The notes beneath the pieces are model-generated. The model saw only the letters and a list, made by a program, of their open reading frames with translations, had not been told where the DNA came from and did not search any database. The position numbers and the translations under genes were made by a program. A DNA stretch of 61,649 nucleotides, counting the filler. It is 7 parts of 7 records of this genome, joined end to end, with 100 filler letters (N's around TTAATTAATTAA, not from the genome) between each part and the next. Parts side by side here need not be neighbours in the genome. Positions count along the whole stretch, not along the records: positions 39,045 to 44,434 come from DRR723986_23354; 6 more parts are not named here. One strand, 5' to 3'. Of this stretch, positions 1,424 to 55,384 are shown piece after piece. How positions within the stretch are numbered: the stretch's first letter is position 1; every line of letters starts with the position of its first letter.

Positions 1424-2464
1424 TTAGAAGGACATTGCCAGACCCAGCGACCAGGTGTCTTCGTAGTCGAGGGGGCCGGAGATTTCGCCAGCGCCGTAGC
1501 CGAGCTGACCGACGAGACCGCCGCCGAAGTCGTAGTTGGCGACCAGACCGAAGCCCGAGGAGTCACCGCCGTCGAAGTCGTACTCGCCGTAGTTGGCTGC
1601 GAGGGTCAGAGCGTTCATGGTGTATGCAACGCCCACGCCCCAGTGGCTGCCGTCGTCCAGGCCGCCCGAGGTGTCGTCGGACATTTTGGAGTAGTTCAGC
1701 ACAGCCTGCAGGCCGTTGTCGAAGGTGGTTGCAACGCTGACGCCCAGCTCGCTGTCGTAGAGCGACGACGCTTCGTCAACCTGGATGTAGCCCAGGCCGA
1801 GTGCGAGGTCGAGACCGGCCAGATCGGCGTTGTAGGACACACCGATTGCATAGGACGGATCGAAGGTTTTGGTGCGGTCCGGCGAGGTCGAAACCGACAT
1901 GGTGAACGCGTCGAACGAGTAGTCGAAGCGGATTTCCTGGCCGCCGTAGGCTTCGTCGAAGGACGAGTGGCCGTTCCAGCCCGGGTGCACGGTTTCGTCG
2001 TCGTTGATCGAGCCGCCGGCGAGGTTGGTCTCGGTCAGGCGAGCGTCGAACGCGGAGTCGGTGTCACCAACGGTCAGACGGGCTGCGCCGTATGCCAGGA
2101 AGATGGTGGCGTCGGGCAGGCGAGCGGAGTCGTCGGTGTTCGCGTCACCGCCGCAAACCGGGATCACGGTGCCGGCGGCCGGCAGGACGGCGGGAACGAC
2201 GATCGCGCACTGGTCGTCAGCAGGTTCGTCCAAGTCGATGCTTGCACCGAAGGTCAGGCCGTTGTCGGCTTCGCCGGTCATCGAGAAGGTCACGTCGATG
2301 TCGGTGAAGACCTGAGTCTCGGAGATGTCACCGGTGTAGAAGTCGCCCGATGCGTTTTCGTTGTAGACCAGGCCCAGCTCGGCGGAGCCGGTGATGGTCA
2401 CTTCGGCTGCTGCTGCACCCGCGACGGCAACCAGTGCGGTGGTCGCAAACAGGATGTTTTTCAT
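1424..2464 (-). CDS. Outer-membrane porin (Rhodobacter-type)
   Basis: Signal peptide MKNILFATTALVAVAGAAAAE, FSMTGEADNGLTFGASIDLDE motif, TVGDTDSAFD, C-terminal Phe. Confidence 0.92.
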   Translation of the reverse strand: MKNILFATTALVAVAGAAAAEVTITGSAELGLVYNENASGDFYTGDISETQVFTDIDVTFSMTGEADNGLTFGASIDLDEPADDQCAIVVPAVLPAAGTVIPVCGGDANTDDSARLPDATIFLAYGAARLTVGDTDSAFDARLTETNLAGGSINDDETVHPGWNGHSSFDEAYGGQEIRFDYSFDAFTMSVSTSPDRTKTFDPSYAIGVSYNADLAGLDLALGLGYIQVDEASSLYDSELGVSVATTFDNGLQAVLNYSKMSDDTSGGLDDGSHWGVGVAYTMNALTLAANYGEYDFDGGDSSGFGLVANYDFGGGLVGQLGYGAGEISGPLDYEDTWSLGLAMSF

Positions 2465-5818: not shown

Positions 5819-5918
5819 NNNNNNNNNNNNNNNNNNNNNNNNNNNNNNNNNNNNNNNNNNNNTTAATTAATTAANNNNNNNNNNNNNNNNNNNNNNNNNN
5901 NNNNNNNNNNNNNNNNNN
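5819..5918. other. Artificial contig linker
   Basis: 44 N + TTAATTAATTAA + 44 N. Confidence 0.98.
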
Positions 5919-16367: not shown

Positions 16368-16467
16368 NNNNNNNNNNNNNNNNNNNNNNNNNNNNNNNNN
16401 NNNNNNNNNNNTTAATTAATTAANNNNNNNNNNNNNNNNNNNNNNNNNNNNNNNNNNNNNNNNNNNN
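16368..16467. other. Artificial contig linker
   Basis: N44-TTAATTAATTAA-N44. Confidence 0.98.
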
Positions 16468-27172: not shown

Positions 27173-27272
27173 NNNNNNNNNNNNNNNNNNNNNNNNNNNN
27201 NNNNNNNNNNNNNNNNTTAATTAATTAANNNNNNNNNNNNNNNNNNNNNNNNNNNNNNNNNNNNNNNNNNNN
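27173..27272. other. Artificial contig linker
   Basis: N44-TTAATTAATTAA-N44. Confidence 0.98.
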
Positions 27273-38944: not shown

Positions 38945-39044
38945 NNNNNNNNNNNNNNNNNNNNNNNNNNNNNNNNNNNNNNNNNNNNTTAATTAATTAA
39001 NNNNNNNNNNNNNNNNNNNNNNNNNNNNNNNNNNNNNNNNNNNN
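38945..39044. other. Artificial contig linker
   Basis: N44-TTAATTAATTAA-N44. Confidence 0.98.
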
Positions 39045-40898: not shown

Positions 40899-43388
40899 CT
40901 ATGGTTTGCCTGCGAGTAAGTAGGCAAGTAGGTCACGTATTTCGCCAGCCGTCAATTTATCGAGCAAGCCGGCGGGCATGATGGATGTTTGCAGTTCGCG
41001 TCGCTCTTCGACATCGTCCTTGTCGACACTAAAGCTGCTTCCGTCCGCGGTGACGTAAACCTGCTGTTTGCCTTCCTGGCCAACGACCAAGCCGGTTCGG
41101 ACGACACCATCAACGGTCAGCAGTTGCTGAGGTCGATAGTATGGGGCCATCTCGGCATTTGGATTAACAATGTGCTTCAGCAGCCAAGCTTGATCGACAT
41201 CTGACTGCTTATGAATGTTGGTTAAATCGGGCCCGACTGAACTGCCACGCCCTTGCATCGCGTGGCACTTGTAGCAGCCTGCCAGCGTGGAATGAAAAAA
41301 GAGGCGACGACCGACAGCCAAGTCTGGTTTGCCAGTTGCTTTGTCCGCTAGCAAGGCAAGCCACTCCTGCGGTTGGTCGAACGGAGGTTTTTCTGCAACA
41401 CTGCGTTGCGTCAAGCCGACTGCAGCACGCGTGCGATCTGCCTCTTGAGCAATCGCGGCATTGGAATCCGACGCCAGTGAATTGAGAAGCTCTTCGAAAT
41501 CTCGGCCGCTGGTTGCTAGTCCCGCTATCGCGTCCGCCCTTTTGGCCGCATCGATCGATTGATCCGCAGCAACTTCAGCCAGAACCTTGGACCGCGCGTC
41601 GTCGGGATGGATCACCAAGGAGTGAATTGCCTCACGCTGAATGTCAGCAGACTGCGATCTGGCAAGCGTGGCGAGCGCCTTTACGGTTAGGCCTGGATGG
41701 CTGACCTTAACACTTGCAAGCGCCATCGAACGCAACGTAGCAGACTTCTCGGTATCCAGGGCAAGCTGGAGCAATGTGTCGTCGGGTGAGAATTCCTTAT
41801 TGGATTCGCCCTCAACCCGCTCCAGGGCTGCAACGACGGCGCGAAGATCGCGACGACTTAGGTCCGGACGCTCCAGCACTGCTCTAAGATTTGGCTCAAA
41901 TTCACTCAACCGCTCGTCCGCGATCCACTTGATACCGACGAACCGGACGCTTGAATCTCCATCCTCAAGGAGCCCAGGAATCATGTTGCTTCGCCCCTCG
42001 GCGTCCGAACGCTTCATCGCGACCGCAAAGTGTGCACGGGCAATGCCACTGGACATTGCCTGCCAATCGTGGTCAGAAAGCACCTCCGGATGCGTTGCCA
42101 GCACATTCATTGCGGCCGTGCGTTTGTAGGGATCTGTGCTACCCAGTGCTGCAAGAGCGTCGTTGATCGAAAGCGTTTGAGTGGGTTTCCGATTCAACGA
42201 AGGCGCAAGCGTAATTGGCTCCTTGAACTCAACCCGCCAAATACGTCCAAAACCATGCACTGGGTAAGATAGCTTGACCCAGTCGGTGAAATACAAATAG
42301 CGACCATCGGCTGAGTAGGAGAAGTGCACGGGACGAAAATCGTCGGGACCGCTCAGGAATGGCTCCCGCGTCGCTGCGAACGAGTCCCCTTGAGGTGACA
42401 GCGCGTGAAGGTCAACGCGGTTGTCCGTCCAGGATGCACTTAGTAGTTTCTTCGGGCCGTGGGGAATCAATCCACACGCGGCTTCACCGAGCCCTCCGAT
42501 CATTCCAAGTGTTCCTGGATTTTCACCGTACCAACATACGAGCGGATGCAACCCTGACCGACCATAGCGATACTCGTAACCAAAATCAGCTCCGGGAACG
42601 ATGTGTAGCAATCGATTCGGCGGGATCGCGTTGGGGTCGTTGTCGGTGCTGTACAGATTGCCATCTAGATCAAAGGCCATCCCAAAGGCGTTCCAGTGGC
42701 CGGTGGACTGACGCATTAGCTGGCTGCCATCGGTGCGACATTTATATGTCGATCCTCCTTCACCGCCACCTGCCAACCGTGTTCCGTCGGAGCCCACGAA
42801 GGCATAGTCAACTCCTAGATTTTCGCCGAAACCAAAGGCAATCCAATTCGAGTTGGCCGGATCAATGGCAAGGCCACCGACGCCGTTGTGTGGGTAGTTC
42901 CCATCCGTCTCGCAGACGACCAGCTTTTCCGGATCGCCAGCCGCTTTGTCCATATTTGCAGCATTCGGGAACCGCCCGATGAACCAGCGAGTGCTCACGT
43001 ACAGATGTCCGTCAGGGCCGAACAGAAGATCGGTGCTAAAGGTGTGTCCTTCATAGAAGACCCCGCGATCATCGGCGACGCCATCGCCATCGGTATCTTC
43101 AAAAACAAGAATCCGGTCCGTCGGCGGCCCTTTGTAATCGGAATTGCGCTTGTGCGTGTGGTTTTCCTGCACGAACACGCGACCATCTGGTGCAATCGCG
43201 ATTCCCACTGGCGTCACGATTTCGGGATTCTGAGCGAACAATGAGACGCTCTTGATATTGGCGTTGTGTATGCTCGGCGAAAACGACGTCTTCTCGTGGG
43301 AGGCCCAGGAGTTGTCGTCCTGCGCCGTCGCCAGACTGGACGCGAGTGCTACGAGCAGGGCGATCGCGGGAGTATGCGAATACTTCAT
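40899..43388 (-). CDS. PVC-type membrane-associated dehydrogenase-like protein with heme c CxxCH
   Basis: TPVGIAI, EDTDGDGVAD, HEAT-like region, GRRLFF..CYKCH..VGPDLT, SIMPAGL..EIRDLLAYL. Confidence 0.88.
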   Translation of the reverse strand: MKYSHTPAIALLVALASSLATAQDDNSWASHEKTSFSPSIHNANIKSVSLFAQNPEIVTPVGIAIAPDGRVFVQENHTHKRNSDYKGPPTDRILVFEDTDGDGVADDRGVFYEGHTFSTDLLFGPDGHLYVSTRWFIGRFPNAANMDKAAGDPEKLVVCETDGNYPHNGVGGLAIDPANSNWIAFGFGENLGVDYAFVGSDGTRLAGGGEGGSTYKCRTDGSQLMRQSTGHWNAFGMAFDLDGNLYSTDNDPNAIPPNRLLHIVPGADFGYEYRYGRSGLHPLVCWYGENPGTLGMIGGLGEAACGLIPHGPKKLLSASWTDNRVDLHALSPQGDSFAATREPFLSGPDDFRPVHFSYSADGRYLYFTDWVKLSYPVHGFGRIWRVEFKEPITLAPSLNRKPTQTLSINDALAALGSTDPYKRTAAMNVLATHPEVLSDHDWQAMSSGIARAHFAVAMKRSDAEGRSNMIPGLLEDGDSSVRFVGIKWIADERLSEFEPNLRAVLERPDLSRRDLRAVVAALERVEGESNKEFSPDDTLLQLALDTEKSATLRSMALASVKVSHPGLTVKALATLARSQSADIQREAIHSLVIHPDDARSKVLAEVAADQSIDAAKRADAIAGLATSGRDFEELLNSLASDSNAAIAQEADRTRAAVGLTQRSVAEKPPFDQPQEWLALLADKATGKPDLAVGRRLFFHSTLAGCYKCHAMQGRGSSVGPDLTNIHKQSDVDQAWLLKHIVNPNAEMAPYYRPQQLLTVDGVVRTGLVVGQEGKQQVYVTADGSSFSVDKDDVEERRELQTSIMPAGLLDKLTAGEIRDLLAYLLAGKP

Positions 43389-43466
43389 GTTGCCATCATC
43401 TCACTTTACAAGTAATCACGCCGAAGAAGCTCGTGAACGTCTATATTGCCGTCCAATTCGCCAAGC

Positions 43467-43748
43467 GAAAGCTGGAACGCCAATCCTTGCTAATCGATGA
43501 CTAGTTGAAACAACGTAGGAATCGAGGCAGTTACGTTTCTGACTCAATACCTCCTGGGCACTCGCCGTTGCGTGTGCAACTGCTAGTCGGGCCGATTCAG
43601 TCTAAAAAAGTGGGCTATGATAACATACTAGATGCAACCCGGCGTATAGTGAAAGCGAAAGCTCGAACAGTCGCGGTGTGCAAAATAGACTTCAGGCTTC
43701 GATCAAGACTCTGAATTAGTGTTCGATCAGTGGGGATTAGTGTTCCAG
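43467..43748. mobile_element. Gene-less inverted-repeat-bounded unit homologous to the GxxExxY cassette (MITE-like)
   Basis: Left end 43472-43505 and right end 43715-43748 are imperfect 34-nt inverted repeats; internal 43542-43653 is homologous to 44283-44393. Confidence 0.6.
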
Positions 43749-43768
43749 TCAATTCTGCCACAACGAGG

Positions 43769-44434
43769 GAAAGCTGGAACGCTAATTCCCGCTAATCGAC
43801 CACCACTTAAATCCAGATAGCGTTTTAGAAGTTATGCTTCTATCTCCATCGTGACAAGCAGGTTAGCTCAGTGCCCCGCATCCTTTTCGTGAAGATCGTT
43901 GACGATAAGTCGTTTCCATTCTAACCCACCCTTCTTCCCGAAATTGATGAGGTAACCGACCTGCCTTCGCGCGATGCGCATGTAGTTAAACAACTGTGCC
44001 TCATGATCACTACAGAGCTCCTTTAAGGCTTTTAGTTCCACGACGATTGCACCGAAAACGAATAGATCAGGGCCATACTTCGGCCGTAGCAGTTGCCCCT
44101 TGAAGTAAACATCGATCTCCGCTTGGGCGACTGCCGGAATGCCTCTCAGATGAAGTTCTACTTCCAAAGCAGCCTGATAAACCTCTTCAGCCATTCCGTA
44201 TCCGAGCTCGTTGTAGACCTCGAACGCGGCTCCCATTAAGTCGTACCCTTCCTGTTTCAACATCGCTCTGCCATTCAAACCTACTCAATTCCGGGTACCC
44301 GTCGTCGCGCGTGCAACCGCGATAGTCGGCGCGATCCAGTTTAGTAAAGCGTCGCCATGATAACACACTAGATGCAACCTGGCGCGTAGTGAATCCGCCT
44401 GCCGATTAGTGTTCGATCAGTGAGGATTAGTGTT
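43769..44434. mobile_element. GxxExxY cassette bounded by inverted repeats (right end cut by contig end)
   Basis: Left repeat 43774-43807; right repeat 44405-44434 (29/30 identical to 43715-43744). Confidence 0.6.
43868..44263 (-). CDS. GxxExxY protein (PD-(D/E)XK nuclease-like)
   Basis: AAFEVYNELGYGMAEEVYQAALEVEL, PDLFV, IVVELKA, HEAQLFNYM, GYLINFG. Confidence 0.93.
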   Translation of the reverse strand: MLKQEGYDLMGAAFEVYNELGYGMAEEVYQAALEVELHLRGIPAVAQAEIDVYFKGQLLRPKYGPDLFVFGAIVVELKALKELCSDHEAQLFNYMRIARRQVGYLINFGKKGGLEWKRLIVNDLHEKDAGH

Positions 44435-44534
44435 NNNNNNNNNNNNNNNNNNNNNNNNNNNNNNNNNNNNNNNNNNNNTTAATTAATTAANNNNNNNNNN
44501 NNNNNNNNNNNNNNNNNNNNNNNNNNNNNNNNNN
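44435..44534. other. Artificial contig linker
   Basis: N44-TTAATTAATTAA-N44. Confidence 0.98.
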
Positions 44535-55284: not shown

Positions 55285-55384
55285 NNNNNNNNNNNNNNNN
55301 NNNNNNNNNNNNNNNNNNNNNNNNNNNNTTAATTAATTAANNNNNNNNNNNNNNNNNNNNNNNNNNNNNNNNNNNNNNNNNNNN
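55285..55384. other. Artificial contig linker
   Basis: N44-TTAATTAATTAA-N44. Confidence 0.98.

Follow-up and report, generated by a model that had tools for sequence, protein, structure and literature searches.

Two adjacent units with shared inverted ends, unit A and unit B, lie at the right end of the fifth of seven contigs that make up the 61,649-nt stretch of DNA analyzed here (the window). Both belong to a family of long hairpin repeats that occupy extragenic DNA in Planctomycetota. Unit B carries a gene of the GxxExxY (PF13366, PDDEXK_3) family where the tip of the hairpin would be, and the same design, in which a GxxExxY open reading frame (ORF) occupies the tip of a dispersed hairpin repeat specific to the lineage, recurs across phyla. 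The gene product is predicted to be a nuclease with an intact PD-(D/E)XK site. Together, these findings suggest that the GxxExxY family acts on such repeats, and perhaps that it spreads them.

Results

Units A and B share the arms of one long hairpin

The contigs of the window are joined by linkers (Table 1), and the break at 44434 is therefore a true contig end that lies inside the right arm of unit B, as had been proposed when the units were first described from the letters of the window (hereafter, the original prediction). Assembly breaks occur at such hairpins, 44434 being an example. Unit A spans 43467-43748 and unit B spans 43769-44434, where it is cut by the contig end; inverted arms of 26-36 nt are common to both. 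The two units had been described as having common left and right ends, and alignment bore this out, with 75% identity over 55 nt on the left (43464-43518 versus 43766-43820) and 97% over 30 nt on the right (43715-43744 versus 44405-44434). The imperfect inverted repeats noted at the ends of unit A were recovered as 35-nt arms (43472-43506 and 43714-43748) that are 74% complementary, with 207 nt between them, and the arms of unit B are ∼596 nt apart. The right arm of unit A (43714-43748) is also 80% complementary to the left arm of unit B (43774-43808), 25 nt away, and these two arms with their spacer form a 95-nt palindrome (-47.7 kcal/mol). A degenerate 26-nt arm consensus matched three times in the window, each time in the unit A/B region, the fourth arm being the one cut by the contig end; it had no match in 100 dinucleotide-preserving shuffles. 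When arms were scored with a position weight matrix (PWM; scores in Table 1), the largest score in 20 shuffles was 1.5.

Alignment of unit A to unit B revealed that unit A retains the upstream arm, the whole leader block to the start codon, ∼50 nt of the 3′ trailer, and the downstream arm. Only the ORF and ∼20 nt are missing, and ∼59 nt are added next to the upstream arm; the added segment contains AAGCGAAAGCTCGAAC, which resembles the flank and start of a left arm (94%). The ∼110-nt block of unit A that had been predicted to be homologous to the upstream region of the gene (43542-43653 versus 44283-44393) was found by blastn to be 76.5% identical to it over 115 columns. Unit A is, as judged by this alignment, an ORF-less derivative of a unit-B-like element, intermediate between a filled unit and a bare hairpin. 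The derivative appears to be old because the block and the left arms are just 75 to 76% identical. The right arms are 97% identical, compared to 75 to 76% for the left arms and for the leader block next to them, which suggests homogenization of, or selection on, the arm upstream of the gene. The earlier view of unit A as resembling a miniature inverted-repeat transposable element (MITE) thus held for its derivation from a filled unit, but blastn revealed no second copy of unit A and no further 110-nt block, including within 2 kb of the 15 hairpin loci described below. The small ORFs of unit A (69 and 48 aa) had no Pfam match.

As RNA or single-stranded DNA, unit A folds with its arms paired (z -3.8). 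The 110-nt leader block folds no better than shuffles (z +0.86) and has no significant RNA structure, and a scan of 43300-44434 found neither a sigma-70-like promoter nor an intrinsic terminator.

The arms are dispersed as hairpins among Planctomycetota

The arm pattern was searched once in species-representative genomes, and the copy numbers per genome, counted as exact-pattern matches, are lower bounds. Arms were found at 15 loci (L001-L015) in 10 metagenome-assembled genomes (MAGs), all of Planctomycetota, with a maximum of five matches in one MAG. All 15 loci possess a second inverted arm 44 to 86 nt away, start to start. In 14 of them the arms follow the order CTGGAAC...tip...GTTCCAG and form a single hairpin, usually of ∼76 nt with a stem of ∼26-36 bp, with fold energies of -24 to -70 kcal/mol; the other locus, L003, has the inverse order and a 25-nt spacer, like the junction of units A and B. 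The 30 arms have the same build, with three GATYAGYG motifs at a 10-nt phase followed by TTCCAG, and the outer ends of the hairpins are CTGGAAC...GTTCCAG. The tip varies, being 4 to 8 nt long in most loci, with ∼12 extra nt in L011 and ∼40 nt in L009. Given this dispersal, the "terminal repeats" of the cassette in the window are the two halves of a dispersed hairpin that resembles a repetitive extragenic palindrome (REP), in which 207 nt (unit A) or ∼596 nt (unit B) occupy the position of the tip.

The original prediction held that the gene and its repeats form a mobile unit, and it called for a search for further copies of the arms and the block. The part concerning the repeats stood: the gene and its inverted arms make up a discrete unit, and the arms are dispersed with defined ends. 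As to the rest, we saw no sign that the GxxExxY unit itself moves, and the 110-nt block was not found beyond the window. It had also been reasoned that the idea would fail if the repeats occurred independently of GxxExxY genes and lacked boundaries; no GxxExxY gene lies within 2 kb of the repeats at any of the 15 loci, yet their boundaries are defined.

The hairpins occupy intergenic spacers between unrelated genes, such as sucD/sucC, a thioredoxin-reductase-like (trxB-like) gene and a PIG-L gene, and an ATP-grasp/alpha-E/transglutaminase operon, and at least five of the 15 (including that between sucD and sucC) lie between co-directional genes. No transposase domain was present among the 104 ORFs flanking the 15 loci, and no shared target duplication was seen next to CTGGAAC/GTTCCAG at these loci. 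Small ORFs adjoin the hairpins in L003, L005, L008, L009, L013, L014, and L015, and none is a GxxExxY gene. Both strands of the hairpins fold about equally, with one to five G-U pairs on either strand and no strand bias, which argues for a palindrome at the DNA level. A comparison of the window region with Rfam yielded no family at the gathering score; the best matches were microRNA-precursor models (14-22 bits versus the 40-90 needed), which merely reflect the long hairpin. Among 12 related loci, no hairpin matched above the gathering score, the sole above-threshold match being to an unrelated S-adenosylmethionine (SAM) riboswitch.

At 10 loci (L001, L004, L005, L006, L008, L010, L012, L013, L014, and L015) the 76-nt hairpin is nested in a larger palindromic element of ∼178 nt with sharp ends and unrelated flanks. 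In this element, an outer inverted repeat (TAGAGCAGTTNCAGAAATCGTGTTCACC ... GGTGAACACCAATTCTGTNACTGCTCTA) surrounds the hairpin, centered near 1950-2080 of the locus (near 1430-1600 in L015). Its ends read TA...TA at many loci, which may reflect either a target duplication or a piece of the inverted repeat itself. Like MITEs, the 76-nt hairpins and the 178-nt element are small and non-coding, are bounded by terminal inverted repeats, and occur in multiple dispersed copies. In L010, an ORF for an HNH endonuclease (2063-2461, minus strand) directly adjoins the 178-nt element, and in L014 an ORF with a PIN domain (1485-1889, plus strand) is located immediately upstream of the element.

GxxExxY genes of other phyla often lie within or beside hairpins

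Three tblastn queries located 10 GxxExxY places in eight records of a plasmid/chromid collection, and nine of these were examined (L016-L024), the one left out being a third Gemmatirosa place. Pairwise identities among these proteins, and between them and the window protein, are 29 to 55%. In five of the nine places, the ORF is enclosed by inverted arms, with 2 to 33 nt between the upstream arm and the ORF and no more than ∼10 nt between the ORF and the downstream arm. The arms of Bacteroides finegoldii (30 nt, 90% complementary; TTCAC-CACAGAGGA-CGCAGAGGA-CACGGAG) are separated from the ORF by 25 nt on its upstream side and by 9 nt on its downstream side. Those of Sphingomonas (25 nt, 92%; TTCA-CGCGAAGG-CGCGAGGA-CGCGA) place the gene between fabD and fabG, with the downstream arm overlapping the 3′ end of the annotated coding sequence (CDS). 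Bernardetia has CACAGAGA-type arms, Treponema has CACACGGATTCG arms, and Prevotella has ACAAATC-phased arms. The other places vary: in Gemmatirosa L024, an apparently frameshifted GxxExxY gene stands between two complete hairpins, Gemmatirosa L019 has a different hairpin 26 nt downstream of the gene, the locus from Fusobacteria has direct repeats of ∼45 nt, and that of Persicobacter has phased AATCC direct repeats. As in the window, filled units have empty hairpins for neighbors in Prevotella, with three tandem units of 120 nt, and in Treponema. Hairpins of this kind are sometimes annotated as proteins: a CDS annotated as "hypothetical protein" in Prevotella nigrescens (L021 2892-3323) spans the three tandem units and is probably not a gene. 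The GxxExxY gene is co-directional with both neighbors in all six annotated plasmid loci, and in five of the six the leader between the upstream arm and the start codon is 2 to 33 nt. A SAM_alpha riboswitch (RF00521, 38.1 bits versus a gathering score of 36) is located ∼200 nt downstream of the GxxExxY hairpin in L019 (3066-3142), on plasmid 1 of Gemmatirosa kalamazoonensis, a replicon of Gemmatimonadota.

An enrichment of repeats around GxxExxY genes, for which a test had been suggested, was seen by using a flank score, defined as the best ungapped inverted or direct match between the 150-nt flanks of a gene, with the other genes of the same loci as controls. Scores of at least 16 were obtained for seven of the 10 GxxExxY loci, the window included, and for one of 41 control genes (Fisher p 8e-6; Mann-Whitney p 2e-5). 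With the window removed, the proportions were 6/9 versus 1/41 (p 3e-5).

The arm families are dispersed, nested, and paired with the protein

The arm families that were tested are themselves repeated in the genomes concerned. The CGCAGAGGA-type hairpin of Gemmatirosa occurs at no fewer than 79 places in two replicons and its CGCGGAT-type hairpin at 17 places; the Bacteroides arm was found at 34 places in 14 records (Gemmatirosa among them), the Sphingomonas arm at 13 places in eight records, and the Treponema arm at five places. Three of four Bacteroides arm sites inspected are hairpins with 32-bp stems and short tips, located in the gmd-fcl spacer of two species and in a dnaN-exonuclease spacer, and the fourth, in the lptB/der spacer, is a hairpin with 115 nt of cargo in its tip. 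Hairpins with cargo (L027-L032) contained no GxxExxY remnants, the best tblastn match having an E value of 0.76.

Arm motifs vary from lineage to lineage, and a common arm motif is found in each of the three closest protein pairs: Bacteroides and Bernardetia (55% identity), Treponema and Fusobacteria (46%), and Gemmatirosa L024 and Bacteroides (∼48-50%). Two Gemmatirosa paralogs adjoin two different hairpin families. In the 50 kb around one paralog, two of the four hairpins of its family directly flank the gene, and in the 50 kb around the other the sole hairpin is the one 26 nt downstream of the gene.

Hairpins also occur inside hairpins. In Sphingomonas parapaucimobilis (L031 1201-1580 and L032 1205-1460), hairpins of the families CGCGAAGR, CGCGGAGG, and CGCAGAGG are nested in each other's tips, one such site being the hisF-hisE spacer. 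Together with the planctomycete 178-nt element, this nesting fits an insertion or conversion directed to tips. The innermost cargo of L031 is a further long hairpin beginning with GTTCAC.

In Bacteroides, Sphingomonas, and Treponema (L022 2413, L027 1501, L020 2453, L031 1201, and L016 2461/4047), the sequence at the outer arm ends is (T)TCAC...GTGA(A). That of the outer repeat of the planctomycete 178-nt element is GTGTTCACC...GGTGAACAC. The internal motifs of all these repeats differ. Such ends may represent a shared terminal site; they are absent in Gemmatirosa and Prevotella.

GxxExxY is predicted to be a minimal PD-(D/E)XK nuclease

That unit B bears a GxxExxY gene was corroborated by two profiles above their curated cut-offs. 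The ORF at 43868-44278 (minus strand) matched PF13366 with an E value of 2e-38 (131.8 bits, cut-off 22; profile positions 2-116 of 117) and TIGR04256 with 5.8e-36 (123.4 bits, cut-off 35; positions 3-116 of 116), indicative of an intact, full-length family member. Its longest reading, from TTG at 44278, encodes 136 aa; the start is probably the ATG at 44263 (131 aa) because homologs are 127 to 135 aa long and cover 92 to 96% of the query. Among 53 sequences (the window protein and 52 homologs), E26, Y29, K78, and Q90 are invariant and D66, E76, N93, and Y94 are conserved in at least 90%; together they make up an intact PD-(D/E)XK site plus a QxxNY motif, as befits a predicted nuclease.

The AlphaFold (AF2) model is a single confident domain with a predicted local distance difference test (pLDDT) score of 93.1. 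The closest folds by Foldseek are those of Cas4 SSO0001 (E 1.3e-4; template modeling (TM) score 0.58), lambda exonuclease, and the archaeal Hjc resolvase, with E values of 1e-4 to 1e-2. According to the model, GxxExxY would be a minimal PD-(D/E)XK nuclease core of ∼130 aa that is related to Cas4, RecB-type exonucleases, and Hjc. Residues and fold agree with the hallmark of the PD-(D/E)XK superfamily, a catalytic D...(D/E)xK motif carried by an alpha-beta-beta-beta-alpha-beta core. No PDB chain matched by sequence at E ≤ 1. The protein had no PADLOC or PHROGs match as a defense-system or phage gene and no tblastn match in a phage genome collection.

The family comprises 10,168 representative clusters at 50% identity (E ≤ 1e-3). 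Among the best 150 representatives, 17 are tandem fusions of about 250 to 570 aa (e.g., P0134, P0140, P0142, P0155, and P0174); their two matched stretches in one chain are consistent with a dimeric unit. A census of PD-(D/E)XK proteins puts PDDEXK_3 under "Unknown" (PMC3424549). Full-text searches gave no function for GxxExxY, PDDEXK_3, or PF13366, all mentions being incidental. The association with hairpins gives this family a candidate substrate, namely its own arms.

Surroundings of the units in the window

The fifth contig (39045-44434) has a GC content of 0.548. The other coding content of this contig is a pyridine-nucleotide oxidoreductase that binds cyclic nucleotide monophosphates and a PVC-type heme-binding protein, and a domain search of its ORFs found no integrase or transposase. 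The GC contents of the contigs in the window range from 0.454 to 0.667, and neighboring segments may therefore stem from different organisms.

Table 1. Positions of the features in the window. Arm PWM scores are given where available.
Feature	Position	Strand	Remarks
Linkers between contigs	5819-5918, 16368-16467, 27173-27272, 38945-39044, 44435-44534, 55285-55384		N44-TTAATTAATTAA-N44
PVC-type heme-binding CxxCH protein gene	40899-43388	-	TIGR02604, 173.8 bits; co-directional with and downstream of both units; outside the element
Unit A left arm (downstream arm in gene sense)	43472-43507	-	weak copy of the hairpin arm, minus strand ...GATTAGCAAGGATTGGCGTTCCAG; 0 mismatches to the 26-nt pattern; PWM 5.8
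Unit A remnant homologous to the unit B 3′ trailer	43508-43541	-	just before the arm; from the alignment
Unit A copy of the 110-nt leader block	43542-43653	-	76.5% over 115 columns; unit B counterpart directly upstream of the GxxExxY start
Unit A-specific segment, ∼59 nt	43654-43712	.	between block and right arm; gap in unit B
Unit A right arm	43713-43748	+	three phased GATYAGYG, then GTTCCAG; PWM 15.1; 85-91% identical to arms in L001-L015
Spacer between units, 25 nt	43749-43773	.	same inverse arm order and same 25-nt spacing in L003
Unit B left arm (downstream arm in gene sense)	43774-43809	-	PWM 17.7
GxxExxY 3′ trailer, 58 nt	43810-43867	-
GxxExxY gene	43868-44278	-	PF13366/TIGR04256
Unit B leader block, upstream of the ORF	44283-44393	-
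Unit B right arm	44403-44434	+	4 nt short of its end through the contig end; 97% to the unit A arm; partial PWM 11.7

Discussion

A nuclease that may act on its own hairpin

By analogy with REPs and their associated tyrosine transposases (RAYTs), the hairpins and their gene could constitute a REP/REPIN-RAYT-like system in which the role of the HUH tyrosine transposase falls to a PD-(D/E)XK nuclease, with the nuclease cutting its own hairpin and the host spreading the copies; we give this reading an even chance. The nuclease, probably as a dimer, would cut its own hairpin or cruciform after recognizing the phased motifs there. Replication or repair by the host would then copy or convert hairpins, whether or not they contain the gene, at further sites, the tips of other hairpins among them. 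Being co-directional in operon spacers, the GxxExxY gene would probably be expressed by read-through transcription. A wider proposal, which we put forward with more hesitation, is that GxxExxY/PDDEXK_3 proteins are the dedicated nucleases of an unrecognized, cross-phylum class of long hairpin repeats with three phased motifs per arm and the gene at the tip of one copy, a PD-(D/E)XK counterpart of the RAYTs that would generate, maintain, or convert the repeats. If true, this would account for the function of the family and for the origin of palindromic repeat families that lack a tyrosine transposase.

Several findings weigh against a nuclease that mobilizes its own repeats. In the planctomycete MAGs, neither a GxxExxY homolog (tblastn, E ≤ 1e-3) nor the 110-nt block lies within 2 kb of any of the 15 hairpin loci; such gene-free loci fit an action in trans and equally fit the lack of any link in those genomes. 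None of the 15 arm matches is in a record titled Rhodopirellula, Stieleria, Rubripirellula, or Novipirellula, the genera with the closest GxxExxY homologs, so the pairing of gene and arm in the window is not shown to be conserved in the nearest relatives. Among the best 120 matches, the closest homologs (65-86% identity) occur once in each of 10 named Pirellulaceae organisms, and the gene therefore looks like a conserved resident and not like a multicopy transposon. The protein is a predicted nuclease of 130 aa with no evident strand-transfer or separate DNA-binding module, and its fold matches are modest (TM 0.4-0.6). The loci inspected showed neither a target duplication nor another filled copy, and no excision junction was seen. 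The sample beyond Planctomycetota consists of nine loci, in two of which (L017 and L018) the flanking repeats are direct and not inverted. One Gemmatirosa gene, which has a CGCAGAGGA hairpin of the most abundant family on either side, is split over two frames by an apparent frameshift (L024 2492-2868, equivalent to L025 24802-25163). The flank-score threshold of 16 was chosen after the scores were known and the sample is small (10 loci), of which three fell below the threshold (L016, 11; L018, 10; L019, 9); the Mann-Whitney test, being a rank test, is independent of the threshold.

Alternative explanations

GxxExxY could instead be a homing-type selfish gene, in which case the hairpins would spread by other means, and the protein would cut the center of an empty palindrome so that repair copies the gene into the tip by way of the 26-36-nt arm homology. 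Such a gene would be expected to replace the loop alone, as is observed, with filled and empty Bacteroides hairpins keeping both arms at essentially full length; empty hairpins far outnumber filled ones, the two kinds stand side by side, nested hairpins show that tips accept insertions, and a dimeric PD-(D/E)XK enzyme would suit a palindromic target. Unit A, however, keeps the leader and trailer of the gene and therefore looks like a filled unit that lost its ORF, not a site that was never filled. The loop sequences of the empty hairpins vary, so a central recognition site is not evident, each arm family examined showed a single filled copy, and the homologs appear to be single-copy per species among the best 120 matches. 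On balance, we consider homing unlikely. A GxxExxY protein with a cellular role of its own, for example as a repair nuclease, would be a mere passenger; hairpins and small acquired genes would share short operon spacers, and the two units would reflect local history. The absence of the gene at 15 of 15 planctomycete hairpins is compatible with this explanation, as are the general abundance of hairpins in operon spacers, the conserved and apparently vertical inheritance of the homologs, and the lack of direct evidence of movement. Coincidence would not readily account for the contrast with neighboring genes of the same loci (1/41 with such flanks versus 7/10), for an ORF placed at the tip between the two arms of one hairpin in at least six lineages with different motifs, for different paralogs of one genome beside different families, or for the sharing of motifs by closer proteins, and we regard it as distinctly improbable.

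The arms might also function at the RNA level. A stem that encloses the ORF could be cut by RNase III to separate the message of the inserted gene from that of the operon, and the empty hairpins could be REP-like stabilizers or processing sites of mRNA; this possibility can coexist with a nuclease acting on its own hairpin. The co-directional placement of the gene in all six annotated loci with a short leader in five of them (e.g., Sphingomonas fabD-GxxExxY-fabG), the hairpins between co-directional planctomycete genes (five or more of the 15), and the paired arms in the predicted fold of unit A RNA would all agree with such a role. The equal folding of both strands and the unbiased G-U pairs argue otherwise, the triple motif with its phasing has the appearance of an array for protein binding and not of an RNA requirement, and there was no Rfam family match; as a full explanation, we judge it to have little chance. 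Least probable is a purely local event, in which unit B was duplicated in tandem and unit A then lost its ORF, with no wider family involved. The original prediction had named this outcome as one that would undo it. The units are indeed co-linear neighbors, the identity of their right arms is 97%, and copies of the 110-nt block were found solely in the window, but the arms are dispersed in 10 other genomes, filled-plus-empty tandems also occur in Prevotella and Treponema, and the contig breaks inside an arm. The 75 to 76% identity of the block and left arms means that any duplication would be old.

Comparison with known systems

Integron cassettes resemble the units in being small and arrayed, with imperfect palindromes between them and some units non-coding. 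Their attC sites have the core sequences RYYYAAC and GTTRRRY. An integron reading was rejected because the arms end in CTGGAAC/GTTCCAG, no integrase is present on the contig, and the palindromes stand singly between housekeeping genes elsewhere. Intervening sequences in 23S ribosomal RNA (rRNA) can bear an ORF for a four-helix-bundle "S23p" protein and likewise combine a small ORF of an orphan family with the tip of a long stem in a transcribed region; the element described here lies outside rRNA, encodes a different protein family, and has arms that are a dispersed repeat. Free-standing homing endonucleases include PD-(D/E)XK types such as I-Ssp6803I. The likeness to homing endonuclease genes is one of architecture alone, with a small predicted-nuclease ORF inside its presumable recognition site and both empty and filled sites, whereas the target in the present case would be a multicopy extragenic palindrome and not a conserved single-copy gene or intron. 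With MITEs and their autonomous parents, the family shares terminal inverted repeats, dispersal with sharp ends, and the presence, besides a longer unit that bears a gene, of short derivatives with no coding sequence (unit A and the 76-nt hairpins). It differs in having no DDE or other known transposase, in that no target-site duplication is evident for the hairpin, and in a minimal member made up of the two arms alone.

Among REPs, those with a CGTC tag "apparently lack a dedicated transposase" according to Di Nocera et al. (2013, PMC3733652), who place them in Alphaproteobacteria, Bacteroidetes, and Spirochaetes. They are palindromic repeats in taxa that overlap those with GxxExxY hairpins, but their stems measure 8-9 bp and their loops 4-5 nt, with the CGTC tag left unpaired, compared to the phased-motif stems of ∼26-36 bp found here. 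Assignment to the GTAG/CGTC REP superfamilies, which are defined by a 5-13-bp stem and an unpaired tag, was ruled out by the 26-36-bp stems and the lack of GTAG (PMC3733652).

The closest parallel is with REP-RAYT systems, in which cognate REPs in inverted orientation border a gene that co-evolves with these repeats and has the look of a resident (Nunvar et al. 2010 PMC2817692; Bertels & Rainey 2011 PMC3116915). The repeats described here are likewise extragenic and palindromic, occur as inverted doublets, and flank the gene in inverted orientation; the maximum of five exact-pattern matches per planctomycete MAG is a lower bound. As in REP/REPIN-RAYT systems, dispersed extragenic palindromic repeats form hairpins as inverted doublets, a single nuclease or transposase gene lies between two inverted cognate repeats, the repeats are lineage-specific and apparently co-vary with the protein, and the gene looks resident and not multicopy. 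The flanked gene itself is not a RAYT, since it belongs to PF13366: the protein is a PD-(D/E)XK family member of ∼130 aa in place of an IS200/IS605-like HUH tyrosine transposase. The arms, of 26-36 nt, consist of three phased 8-10-nt motifs, in contrast to REPs of 20-40 nt; they lack a GTAG or CGTC tag, and the gene occupies the loop of a single hairpin. The link between GxxExxY and hairpins suggests a second, non-HUH route to REP-like repeats, which would be relevant to the repeats that are reported to have no dedicated transposase (PMC3733652).

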